From Podospora anserina (lineage: Eukaryota), in contig CM030334.1 of assembly GCA_017654855.1 (NCBI GenBank), positions 3,782,001 to 3,846,000 of the forward strand: a stretch of 64,000 nt of DNA, read 5' to 3'. The notes under the pieces are model-generated. The model saw only the letters and a list, made by a program, of their open reading frames with translations. It had not been told where the DNA came from and did not search any database. This document shows positions 59,412 through 62,370 of this stretch, one piece after another (within the stretch, counting starts at the first letter, position 1; the number at the start of each line of letters is the position of its first letter). A program made the translations under genes and the position numbers.

Positions 59412-59489
59412 GAGTCATAACCTCATATCAGCGGCACCCCCCCTGTAAAGTGGCAGAAAATTAGCGGAGCCCTTCTGGGGGTTGAGTCA
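59412..59489. promoter_or_regulatory. Two Gcn4/CPC-1 cross-pathway control elements upstream of tryptophan synthase
   Basis: ATGACTC on the minus strand (59412-59418) and TGAGTCA (59483-59489), 150-225 bp upstream of the ATG. Confidence 0.7.
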
Positions 59490-60138
59490 CCGCCCCTCCT
59501 CCAGTGCCCCTCTCAACCGCAGTGCGTGCTGCAGTCTCGCCCCCGTCACCGAACAGGGAATTTTTCTGCCGGCTCGCCACGACCTGGGCCTTCCCCGATT
59601 GCGGAGGCCATGTCCCGCGATGCCTGAAGAGGCCACGGCGCCGGTCATCACGACCCGAGGTGCCGGAGATCGTGGATACTTGCGGACAAGCCCGTCATCA
59701 AAAAGACAACACAATGGGTTTATTCAAGTCCACTTTGGGATCTCACAAAGAAAAAGGCATTTTGATTGCACAGATCCAACTCAAACTGGGCTTCATATAT
59801 ATATGAAGTATCTCATATCCTACCCGTTGGAGTCCCAGCAATCAGGGGATCTCACATAAATCGCAACAACAACAAGTAAATGCATGCCGGATGTCTTTTT
59901 TGATGATCTGGGTCTGTCTGCCAATCTACCGAGGTATATATATTGGAACGCCTCGCTATCCAAACGCCTTACCAACCATGCAAGCAACAAAAGAAACCAA
60001 GAGTGAAACGAAAAGAAAAAAAAGAAAAGAAAAATATTAAATGACCGAGTACATCGGCGGTGGTTGTCCCAGCCCAGCTCCAGAGGACGAGCTCTCCTCA
60101 TAACTGCCCCAATTGATATCCTTCTTCTCCCGCCGTCC

Positions 60139-62370
60139 CTATCGGCCAGAGTACCCGGAATCCTCAACGGTAGGGTAACTGCTCTTTCTCGCATGCGTAT
60201 TCCACTTCTCCGACTCGACCTTCCCCCTCTTGACGCTCCCGGCATAAACCACCTCTTGTCGGTAGTCATGATACGCACTCGGCTCTTCCTGCTCGTCTGC
60301 CTTGACATCTCGTTGGTGTCGTCTGTTGGCGGCTGTGTCGCCAGGAGCAAAACTGTTAGGTCTGCTCCCAAACTTCACGCCCCATCTGTCACCGCCCAGA
60401 CCGCGTGTCTTGTCGTTCTGCGTCATCCTGACCAGCGCGTAGACCACACCCCCAAGAACAATGATGACATAAACCAGAAGAAGTGCCAGCGAGATGAGCG
60501 CCTCTTGAACGATGCCGCTCTGCAGCTTGCTCACGACCTTGGCCACCGCGTCCGTAATCTCATCCGTCGTGACACTAGCAGGCGTAGCCAGGAAGCTGGT
60601 CAGCTCACCGTCGCCATTGACGCTGTCGTTGGCTCCGGCACTGAACATATCATTGCGGAAGAGCGGCAGCGTCACCTTGGCGTGGTCATGCACCCACGTC
60701 AGCCCCTTCTCAACCGTGTCAATCTTTCGCAAAATGACACAGCCAACGATGTCCCTGGCCACGTTGAACAGAACGGTGTCTTTGAAGACGGCCTCGACCG
60801 CCTTGCTGATCTCGTCTTCAAAGGTGTTGAGAGTGTTGTTGACGGCCTTCGTGGCGTTGGTGACGTAACCGAGGACGTCGTTGTTGATGTCGTTCTGCAG
60901 GCCCAGGATCACTCCGTTCGCACCATCCGACCAGTCCGTCGAGACAGCCTGTAATGTGCCAACAACATCTTCGGCAAAGTTGCCGACTTGAGTAGCGAGC
61001 TCCGGAGCCTTATTCTGGACAGCCCTCAGCATCAAGTACTGGCAGAAGCAGCTAAAGAACCCAGCCATGGCCAAGGCAAGAACGAACAGCGCCGGCAGCG
61101 AAGTGGCATAGGCCACCGTCCACCGCGCCAGAAGGTGGTTCCTGCCAGTCATCCTGAACCGCTTCCCAAGCCAGATTCCCGCACCAGCAGTCATCGGCCG
61201 GCCAGCAATATAGACCACATCCATCGGGTCGTAGCCATGCTCGGTAAACACTCTGGCCCTCTCCTTCTCCTTTCTCCAGCGGCGAATCTCAATCCAGCCC
61301 ATGAGGATGATGGCCAGAACGGCCAGAATAGGGATGGCTACCAAGAAGGCAATCTTGGCTTTGGCGATGATCTCGAAGAGCGATTGGAAAAAGTCGTTGA
61401 GGAACGAGTTGGACGAGCAGAATGAAAGAGCCTGCTTCTGCGCAACGGGGAAGACGGTCTTGTCGAACTGGTAGTTGCCAAAGCTGGAGTTGAGCTGCTC
61501 TCTGACGAACTGGAACGGGATGCCAATGGCGTTCTTGGTGAAATTCTCTACCTGGTCGAAGGTAGGCACCTTCTTGTCGAGCTTGACGATGCTATCAACC
61601 ATATCCGTCGAGTTGATGTTGATGTCCTTGAGGTCAGCAAGGGGGCGGCTGATGTCAATCTTAGGAATCGAAATGGGGCCGATCAAGTTGCCTGCGAAAT
61701 TGCCGACTGCATCACCGACGTTCTCGAGAGCTTTCTGTACATCCTCGATAGTCTCTGAAATCTGACCAGTGAGGGTGCCAATGGCATCGTTCATGAACTT
61801 TGTTGCCGCCTCGATGCCCTTAGCGCCAACCTCGAGGGCACCGTGGATAAGAGCTGCAATGAGACAGGCCCATGTGCCAACGTACATGTTGATGACAAAG
61901 TAAACCAGGTTCTCGACCCCAGTGAGGATCAACATCAGGATCTGAACCATGGCAGAAACAGCCTTCTCAATTCCTTCCGCCGCCATCGAGTTGACACCCA
62001 CAGACAAGTAATGAGGCATGGACGCCATGGCACTCCCGACATCTTCGACCTTGGTGCATGCTGAGAGAGCTTTGACTTTGGCATCGCCGATATTGTCGTT
62101 GAGGCTGCCGGTGAGGAGGAGGACGCGGACGAGGACGAGGATGAGGAGAACGGTCCATCGGTTGAACCAGAGCTGAGAGAGCCTGGCGCGGAGGCCGAGG
62201 TAAGGAGTGACGGTGGGATCGGTGTGGGCGTGTGGTTGAAGCTTGGGAGCGGCCTGATTTTGCTGACTTCTATCGAGGTCGATCATCTCCCAGGAGTTGG
62301 CGTTGAGGCTGGCGGGAACAGGCGGCACCGGGGTTGGCCCTCCGGCCCTGCCCTTCTCGTCGTAGGTCAT
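60139..62370 (-). CDS. PRM1: Plasma membrane fusion protein Prm1
   Basis: PYLGLRARLSQLWFNRWT, ALSACTKVEDVGSAMASMPHY, T.ACL, LSFCS, CVILRKI..VEKGLTWVHDHA and several TM segments. Confidence 0.93.
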   Translation of the reverse strand: MTYDEKGRAGGPTPVPPVPASLNANSWEMIDLDRSQQNQAAPKLQPHAHTDPTVTPYLGLRARLSQLWFNRWTVLLILVLVRVLLLTGSLNDNIGDAKVKALSACTKVEDVGSAMASMPHYLSVGVNSMAAEGIEKAVSAMVQILMLILTGVENLVYFVINMYVGTWACLIAALIHGALEVGAKGIEAATKFMNDAIGTLTGQISETIEDVQKALENVGDAVGNFAGNLIGPISIPKIDISRPLADLKDININSTDMVDSIVKLDKKVPTFDQVENFTKNAIGIPFQFVREQLNSSFGNYQFDKTVFPVAQKQALSFCSSNSFLNDFFQSLFEIIAKAKIAFLVAIPILAVLAIILMGWIEIRRWRKEKERARVFTEHGYDPMDVVYIAGRPMTAGAGIWLGKRFRMTGRNHLLARWTVAYATSLPALFVLALAMAGFFSCFCQYLMLRAVQNKAPELATQVGNFAEDVVGTLQAVSTDWSDGANGVILGLQNDINNDVLGYVTNATKAVNNTLNTFEDEISKAVEAVFKDTVLFNVARDIVGCVILRKIDTVEKGLTWVHDHAKVTLPLFRNDMFSAGANDSVNGDGELTSFLATPASVTTDEITDAVAKVVSKLQSGIVQEALISLALLLVYVIIVLGGVVYALVRMTQNDKTRGLGGDRWGVKFGSRPNSFAPGDTAANRRHQRDVKADEQEEPSAYHDYRQEVVYAGSVKRGKVESEKWNTHARKSSYPTVEDSGYSGR

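Follow-up and report, generated by a model that had tools for sequence, protein, structure and literature searches.

A conserved UAG in a hairpin loop of the PRM1 mRNA of Podospora anserina, a probable site of stop-loss editing that would append a hidden PPxY-type sorting motif

In a 64,000-nucleotide stretch of Podospora anserina DNA (GenBank assembly GCA_017654855.1, contig CM030334.1, positions 3,782,001 to 3,846,000; hereafter the window), the gene for the plasma membrane fusion protein PRM1 ends at a UAG that lies in the loop of a small hairpin and is followed, in frame, by a short extension ending in a PY motif. Orthologous loci share the stop type, the register of the hairpin and the in-frame motif far more than chance would allow. 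From this anatomy, and from the conservation of stop type, register and motif, we infer recoding by adenosine-to-inosine (A-to-I) editing, its sexual-stage specificity and the partner of the motif. The full statement, that this is a conserved recoding site at which sexual-stage A-to-I stop-loss editing adds an endocytosis or ubiquitin-ligase motif to PRM1, is given a probability of about 0.6. Support is strong for its first part, a conserved and translated extension to which a UAG in a conserved hairpin acts as the gate; given such recoding, A-to-I editing is the probable mechanism.

PRM1 is encoded on the minus strand by an open reading frame (ORF; 60139-62370 including the stop) of 743 amino acids (aa), with the C-terminus GYSGR and then TAG, and the sequence around this stop reads ...tactctggccgatagggacggcgggagaag.... 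The protein is 87-90% identical to proteins of Cercophora samala, Triangularia and Apiosordaria named plasma membrane fusion protein PRM1; against named PRM1 proteins it scores E = 0 over 96% of the query, and its precomputed family is PF27758.1. A local copy of Pfam returned no family match for it, the PF27758 model presumably being newer than that copy. The 90% cluster of this protein contains PRM1 from the Podospora anserina complex, five named species of which are represented, always with 743 aa. With the TAG decoded as tryptophan, translation continues as W-GRREKKDINWGSYEESSSSGAGLGQPPPMYSVI, that is W plus 33 residues ending in GQPPPMYSVI, and stops at the TAA at 60039-60037. This second stop, in frame with the extension and bridged by contigs, is what a stop-loss site is expected to have. 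When the 150 nt downstream of the first stop were shuffled 5000 times with dinucleotides preserved, PPxY preceded the first in-frame stop in 0.04% of shuffles.

RNAfold folds 60120-60160 of the minus strand as CUCU.GCCG [AUAGGGA] CGGC.GGAG, with four pairs, a G.G mismatch and four GC pairs closing the loop. The A of the UAG (60140) occupies position 3 of the 7-nt loop, as expected of an editing site, in a hairpin whose stability in the window is by itself not significant; it has U at -1 and G at +1, +2 and +3. These results bear out the preliminary description, made from the letters of the window, which had placed this A third in a seven-base loop, drawn a 4-bp GC stem continued past one G.G mismatch by four further pairs, read a 34-aa extension with a PPxY from the W up to the TAA, and pointed to T-rich sequence directly 3' of the TAA. 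The coordinates are collected in Table 1.

Table 1. Features of the PRM1 3' end in the window
Feature	Position	Strand	Basis or remark
PRM1 coding sequence, 743 codons	60142-62370	-	single ORF, intron-free as far as seen; ORF list, homology and colinear contigs
UAG stop	60139-60141	-	candidate for editing: A at 60140 (UAG becomes UIG, decoded as UGG, Trp)
Hairpin	60127-60151	-	5' arm 60151-60143, 7-nt loop AUAGGGA 60142-60136, 3' arm 60135-60127; RNAfold
In-frame extension, 33 codons 3' of the UAG (GRREKK...PPPMYSVI)	60040-60138	-	translation
PPMYSVI, conserved terminal motif [PL]PxYxx[IV], a PY motif overlapping YxxPhi	60040-60060	-	in-frame comparison
TAA, stop of the extended form	60037-60039	-	sequence and translation
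T-rich 3' untranslated region, bounded by contig ends of three runs (weak hint)	59886-60036	-	Logan contigs, kind guessed to be RNA

In order to compare orthologous 3' ends, metagenome contigs were scanned, and 80 PRM1 loci were returned. Loci with an ORF cut by the contig end, with fewer than 63 nt downstream or with a longest ORF below 650 aa were dropped together with duplicates, which left 53 loci and, with the window, 54 distinct 3' ends. Their stops are TAG in 24, TGA in 25 and TAA in 5. The motif [PL]PxYxx[IVL] stands in frame behind 11 of the 24 TAG ends and behind none of the 25 TGA or 5 TAA ends. Over 57 distinct downstream sequences it was found 12 times in frame 0 and never in frame +1 or +2, and in each locus it preceded the first stop in only 0-0.36% of 5000 dinucleotide shuffles of the 150 nt downstream. 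The terminal motif is PPMYSVI in the window, PPQYCPI in L001, LPKYSQI in L002, PPKYSPI in L003, L004 and L015, PPSYTPI in L006, PPLYSPV in L007, PPVYSPV in L013, PPVYSRV in L014 and PPSYWDI in L017.

Homologous in-frame extensions are therefore found in 10 loci besides the window. Their linkers between stop and motif measure 13-33 codons and are unalignable between families, with the frame kept throughout; the 11 motif-bearing loci span at least six such unalignable lineages and are not near-copies, protein identity to the window being 53-64%. Among five Chaetomiaceae-like loci the extension carries indels of 3, 6 and 6 nt, and in its distal half conservation equals that of the coding sequence upstream; beyond the second stop of the same loci, indels are mostly not multiples of three. 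Since its indels keep the frame and its distal part is conserved, the extension behaves as coding sequence, in agreement with the coding-like character that the preliminary description had ascribed to it. That description had also proposed a comparison of PRM1 3' ends, and had named stops or indels behind the UAG as evidence against its proposal. UAG, hairpin and in-frame PPxY proved to be conserved across Sordariales-type and Coniochaeta-type orthologues, and neither stops nor frame-breaking indels were seen in their extensions. The PPxY which it had singled out is indeed conserved, but the actual conserved unit is the longer PPxYxx[I/V], which also fits a YxxPhi endocytic signal. Separately, blocks of the 3' untranslated region behind the second stop of L001-L004 and L015 (e.g. 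ATAATTG...GCATGC and a T-rich run) were observed to be conserved despite many indels.

The hairpin was examined under a single pairing rule, in which, with positions numbered from the U of the UAG, base -k is matched to base +4+k. Under this rule 93 of 126 cells (k = 1-9) are paired in 14 TAG loci, against 32-61 of 126 in other registers, and the same register pairs only 133 of 351 cells in the 39 other loci. The 14 sequences had been picked before the tree was available, as TAG loci with a C-terminus of the '...VED..R' type. In their MAFFT alignment, called A2, 73.8% of cells are paired versus 25-41% with slid partners, and the covariation score is 0.505 versus at most 0.16 when slid. Eight of the nine pairs have changed on both sides; one of them, for example, is A-U in 7 sequences and G-C in 6. 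In 500 shuffles the real values for percentage paired, covariation and number of cells altered on both sides were never reached; 8 pairs changed on both sides were reached in 17 of the 500. RNAalifold independently finds the inner pairs, 4 of 5 of which show compensatory changes, and U-A-G are the sole invariant columns of the alignment. L017, absent from A2, pairs by eye at 7 of 10 positions in the same register, and in the Chaetomiaceae-like loci the helix can close further to a 5-nt loop. Checks over 59800-60400 gave no Rfam match at E up to 1 and no tRNA gene with ARAGORN.

The position of the stop was also followed in annotated proteins. A C-terminal RKSS[YH]P box is present in 124 of 127 orthologous proteins; 106 of the orthologues end 7-10 residues after it and 101 end in arginine. 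Such uniform endings indicate that the stop position itself is conserved, and the location of the 5' hairpin arm within the last PRM1 codons may explain the constancy of both the final residues and the stop position. In the window the last ~33 codons (about 60142-60240, minus strand) hold two boxes just before the stop, VVYAGSVKRG and RKSS[YH]P, the latter a basic-Ser-Ser box with the look of a kinase site. Eight proteins of the Sordariaceae (named Neurospora, Sordaria and Pseudoneurospora, and three more) have no stop here and run on for 21-28 further residues to ...EKVPGYFTPI. A related tail thus appears to be made constitutively in this one family, as judged from protein models, where a modelled intron is possible. 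The stop-gated tail of the preliminary description does not extend to the Sordariaceae, whose eight proteins appear to encode a related tail without any stop.

Elsewhere in annotated PRM1 proteins PPxY is rare, occurring anywhere in only 6 of 120. A few Chaetomiaceae-type proteins (among P0022, P0024, P0030 and P0075) have a constitutive PPPY ~60 residues before the C-terminus, and P0075 has a PPTY at -24; PY motifs thus recur in the cytosolic tail of the PRM1 family. P0076, an 812-aa model from Mycothermus thermophilus, diverges from the conspecific P0064 after about residue 665 and ends in ...ELSLPPLAMYSPL, a sequence that lines up colinearly with ...ALSMPPPPKYSPI of the Chaetomiaceae-like tail; this model is probably an annotation artefact into which the hidden tail happens to have been drawn. 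Hard-wired forms were also sought with the C-terminal 78 residues of the W form, and among 9 candidates only the five known Podospora-group proteins of 743-749 aa were found.

A quick maximum-likelihood tree of 72 PRM1 proteins, rooted at the midpoint, contains one clade (SH-aLRT 99) with 15 rows known from DNA, and all 15 have TAG, with no TGA or TAA row among them. These are the 11 with the motif together with L011, L022, L023 and L025; the 14 loci of A2 plus L017 make up every DNA-known row of the clade. Its named proteins are Podospora-group, Chaetomiaceae, Lasiosphaeriaceae-type, Echria, Coniochaeta, Phialemonium and Pleurostoma. Of the 39 ends outside it, 9 are TAG, and the tail is present in none. 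The Sordariaceae are nested in the Sordariales on this tree, and tail-bearing TAG lineages are found both inside the Sordariales (Podospora group, Chaetomiaceae-like, L007, L013) and outside (Coniochaeta-like L014 and L017). By parsimony on the midpoint-rooted tree, the gated tail would predate the Sordariales and the stop-free form of the Sordariaceae would be derived.

Transcript data were taken from Logan contigs, which make up all 24 run rows, their kind being guessed or not recorded. Four runs (X1, X2, X14 and X15), which have large contig totals and come from different studies, were used. In each, one contig is colinear over gene, UAG, extension and TAA, with no other letters and no joint. 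The contigs end at 59885-59887 (X2, X14 and X15; two studies) and at 59704 (X1), and 59421-59541 is uncovered in all four runs. As a weak hint, from runs only guessed to be RNA, the mRNA would reach at least ~150 nt past the TAA, so that the extension would lie within the transcript. A transcript end upstream of the extension, which the preliminary description had listed among the outcomes that would count against it, was not seen, the contigs running ~150 nt past the TAA. An intron removing the stop was considered and rejected, as the contigs are colinear and the sole GT...AG around the stop is 16 nt long. Two further observations concern the contigs themselves. At 59796, in an AT palindrome (59791-59808), one depth-5 contig of X2 has C for the T of the window, a transcript-strand A>G with U at -1; this may be an edit, a strain difference or an error, at a site beyond most contig ends. 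In the PRM1 coding sequence, a low-complexity stretch of GGAGGAGG type at 62110-62148 (the Leu/Val-rich first membrane segment, minus strand) draws pieces of several unrelated loose-ended contigs in all four runs.

The conserved in-frame motif implies that the stop is passed, and the route of passage has to be judged from the site. In Fusarium graminearum, according to the available text of PMC4817773, PMC11156358 and PMC11087585, editing prefers U at -1 (85.7%), A/G at +1, G at +2 and A/G at +3 and +4, hairpin loops resembling anticodon loops are preferred, and stable loops are edited more. Editing is favoured at the PRM1 stop because the site matches this published preference of the fungal ADAT-based system, because TAG is found in 15 of 15 rows of the clade and UAG is the sole stop that editing makes a sense codon, and because the closely parallel case of DBF2 is documented. 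Sexual-stage editing is reported, in the portions available, for Neurospora, Sordaria, Chaetomium globosum and Fusarium (PMC11156358, PMC13123824). In the available part of a preprint on sexual development of Podospora anserina, ADAT genes are enumerated among those differentially expressed, and PRM1 and editing are treated separately. Under the proposed mechanism, a small hairpin resembling the anticodon arm of a tRNA would hold the UAG in its loop, ahead of a tail that is normally silent, the sexual-stage ADAT (Tad2/Tad3) system would deaminate its A (60140), and part of the PRM1 mRNA in developing fruiting bodies would then read UGG, so that the protein would gain W plus 33 residues. The new cytosolic tail would expose a PY motif, a predicted ligand of NEDD4/Rsp5 WW domains, overlapping a YxxPhi endocytic signal, and the sorting of PRM1 may be changed or its plasma-membrane lifetime shortened after fertilisation.

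PPxY is a ligand of the WW domains of Rsp5/NEDD4 ligases. A PY motif, [PL]PxY, is present in 11 of 11 extensions, at a position that would be cytosolic by analogy with yeast, and the same extensions fit YxxPhi, with I or V three places after the Y in 11 of 11; in 8 of 11 the Y stands three residues from the new C-terminus. The cytosolic placement of the PRM1 C-terminus follows from the 4-pass topology described for yeast Prm1 in the available text of PMC3718343. As its sequence predicts, the tail may plausibly direct a plasma-membrane protein to endocytosis, vacuolar sorting or turnover. The preliminary description had called Prm1 a fusogen; its part in fusion stands, but the available text of PMC3718343 describes a fusion facilitator and not a proven fusogen. 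No direct link between Prm1 and Rsp5 was found in the accessible portions of the literature on cell fusion.

Several observations weigh against editing of PRM1 as proposed here. No T>C (A>G on the transcript) was found at 60140 in the contigs of X1, X2, X14 and X15, whose stage is unrecorded; contigs keep only the major variant, so the absence of G limits just high-level editing in those samples. Editing of mRNA in any Podospora was not found in the literature searched. According to the same Podospora preprint, in the part available, expression of PRM1 (Pa_3_11320) rises until 42 h and then falls. At the protein level, an exact look-up of the 777-aa W form in a collection of ~15 billion proteins found nothing, and the cluster of the window PRM1 has 8 members, each of 743 aa. 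The window hairpin taken alone is not significant (minimum free energy -14.1 kcal/mol, z -1.63, with 10 of 200 shuffles folding as well). The motif is not universal either: the hard-wired tail of the Sordariaceae has VPGY (VPKY in 1 of 8) and not PPxY, the Mycothermus model ends in ...LPPLAMYSPL, with YxxPhi kept and PPxY lost, the Phialemonium-like L011 combines TAG and a good hairpin with a tail of just 6 residues, DPLARR, and L022, L023 and L025 have tails in ...PAPAY[IFV]P(P), which is not the canonical motif. Finally, stop-loss editing has been argued to be generally non-adaptive (PMC13684035, a 2026 comment by Li and Zhang). With regard to the Sordariaceae, one may speculate that a weakened motif in the sole constitutive tail fits a signal that is harmful if always present. 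L022, L023, L025 and L065 share the hairpin register and TAG, and their short tails, [VA]PAPAY[IFV]P, are conserved within the group; the UAG-bearing hairpin may predate the canonical PPxY tail, or some additional role may account for its retention.

Fungi are known to hide C-terminal sorting signals behind leaky stops, and the PRM1 tail could likewise arise from ribosomal read-through of the UAG by near-cognate decoding, at a low level in every stage that expresses PRM1. Conservation of the in-frame tail proves translation past the stop and not its route, and an edited base at 60140 is not seen in the contigs, so that these data leave room for such an origin. Leaky contexts include UGA-CUA and UAG-CAR-YYA, and known stimulators lie downstream of the stop. 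Across the 14 loci a purine directly follows the stop in 13 (A in 7, G in 6) and C in one, and no such leaky context is conserved; the conserved helix is centred on the stop and holds it in its loop, and hence must be melted once the ribosome arrives there, which places it poorly to stimulate read-through and favours editing. No programmed read-through signal was therefore recognised in these loci, the consensus contexts being those just given. Strict TAG (15/15) is moreover what UAG-to-UGG editing requires, whereas read-through would tolerate or even prefer UGA. We regard read-through as improbable. Least credible of all, and deserving next to no weight, is the view that nothing here is functional and that a chance open frame and a chance hairpin lie side by side in a 3' untranslated region. 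It could appeal to the non-significance of the single-sequence hairpin and to the lack of any RNA or protein trace of the long form in the contigs and the protein collection, but it would have to account for a motif in frame in 11 distinct loci of at least six unalignable lineages, never in other frames and never behind TGA or TAA, for hairpin covariation, for extension indels in multiples of three, and for loci that are far from near-copies (53-64% identity to the window).

Recoding might also be real and yet a tolerated defect of the harm-permitting or restorative kind, the tail being the true C-terminus of PRM1, required during the sexual phase, and the stop having arisen before it and lasting because enough full-length protein is restored by editing. 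The related tail without a stop in the Sordariaceae is in keeping with this, and in the view of Li and Zhang (PMC13684035) adaptation is not needed to explain stop editing at high levels, such cases being marked by sequence conservation 3' of the stop. Against it, the ends outside the clade (25 TGA, 5 TAA and 9 other TAG) stop at the homologous place and have no such tail, so that the short form looks ancestral and the tail added. Stop and hairpin have also been kept with compensatory changes across families, suggesting selection for the gated arrangement, and as the Sordariaceae lie inside the Sordariales while tail-bearing TAG lineages lie inside and outside, the hard-wiring looks derived. 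A tolerated defect is consequently held to be rather improbable, though slightly less so than read-through. A different kind of doubt concerns the partner of the tail, which may act mainly as a YxxPhi signal for clathrin adaptors (AP-2/AP-1), or through some other partner, and not as an Rsp5/NEDD4 ligand. The I or V three places after the Y in every extension, the Y three residues from the new C-terminus in 8 of 11, and the Mycothermus tail, which keeps YSPL and not PPxY, all speak for an adaptor signal. However, [PL]P ahead of x-Y in 11 of 11 is not needed by YxxPhi alone, in ENaC both features of the extended PY motif PPxYxxL contribute to Nedd4 binding, and the Sordariaceae tail fits neither, as YFTP has P and no hydrophobic residue three places after the Y and VPGY is no PY motif. 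We consider a tail acting mainly in this way unlikely on balance, but clearly more credible than the other alternatives.

A Nedd4-type reading of the tail has a model in the epithelial channel ENaC, in which an extended PY motif, PPxYxxL, of the beta and gamma subunits binds Nedd4-2 and sets surface abundance via ubiquitination and endocytosis. The motif syntax is the same, near the cytosolic C-terminus of a plasma-membrane protein and overlapping YxxPhi; ENaC, however, is an animal channel whose motif is encoded constitutively, whereas that of PRM1 is a predicted ligand. Fungal cryptic peroxisomal targeting signals (PTS1), exposed by read-through at leaky UGA contexts, are likewise sorting signals behind an annotated stop that give a second isoform another fate. 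They differ from the PRM1 case, with its strict UAG in a hairpin loop and its PY/YxxPhi motif. The substrate of Tad2/Tad3, the tRNA anticodon stem-loop with its A34, shares with the PRM1 element a 7-nt loop, a GC-rich stem, and a U and then the target A at loop positions 2 and 3. The PRM1 element differs in lying in an mRNA with no tRNA body, and in the Chaetomiaceae-like loci its helix may close to a 5-nt loop. A likeness of editing-site hairpins to the anticodon stem-loop is noted in the available text of PMC4817773 and PMC11156358.

Among edited genes the nearest parallel is DBF2 of Fusarium graminearum and other Sordariomycetes (Du et al. 2026, PMC13123824; statements here follow the text available). 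There too a canonical TAG lies in a conserved hairpin and TAG usage is elevated at the terminator, as in the PRM1 clade. Editing of DBF2 was found in eight species, is sexual-stage specific and uses ADAT-based machinery, and the short extension of FgDBF2 is a degron that lowers protein abundance. In DBF2, however, the extension is poorly conserved and has no named motif, the protein is a soluble kinase and editing is measured, whereas PRM1 is a multipass membrane protein with a conserved linear motif at the end of the extension and a predicted editing site. In restorative editing of the PUK1 type (PMC4817773, PMC11156358, as far as their available text goes) UAG becomes UGG in perithecia, the full-length protein is confined to the sexual phase, and some relatives have a sense codon at the site, to which the stop-free Sordariaceae are the PRM1 parallel. 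PUK1-type stops, however, interrupt the kinase domain and leave an unedited product without function, whereas in PRM1 gating affects only the last 13-34 residues and the short form is a complete conserved PRM1.

Stop-loss editing as such is already known from hundreds of fungal sites, of which only DBF2 has a tested function. The function of stop-loss extensions is disputed, with PMC13123824, in the text available, on one side and PMC13684035 on the other. In searchable text, PRM1 was not found among edited genes, and no mention was found of a PY motif supplied through stop-loss editing; supplementary editing tables (Liu 2016, 2017, Teichert 2017, Du 2026), which lie outside that search, could list PRM1 orthologues.

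Taken further, editing may serve here as the gate for a short linear motif. In this tentative proposal, in which we have distinctly less than even confidence, an ENaC-like PPxYxxPhi signal for endocytosis and ubiquitin ligases would be appended to PRM1 by one deamination in an anticodon-like hairpin in the fruiting bodies of Sordariales and their relatives, and fusion competence would be withdrawn or redirected after fertilisation, for example during crozier or ascus formation; the arrangement would be old, common to Sordariales and Coniochaeta-type fungi, and a modified tail would later have been fixed in the genome of the Sordariaceae. If true, PRM1 would be a second, independent and clearer case than DBF2 of a functional stop-loss extension, unusual in having a recognisable, deeply conserved motif, compensatory evolution of its hairpin and a natural hard-wired variant in the Sordariaceae. 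The question of adaptation would become testable with few alleles in a tractable model fungus. RNA editing would also be tied to the control of membrane-fusion machinery. PRM1 of Neurospora is said, in the title of a paper, to have post-fertilisation functions, and PRM1 recoding might help to explain them.

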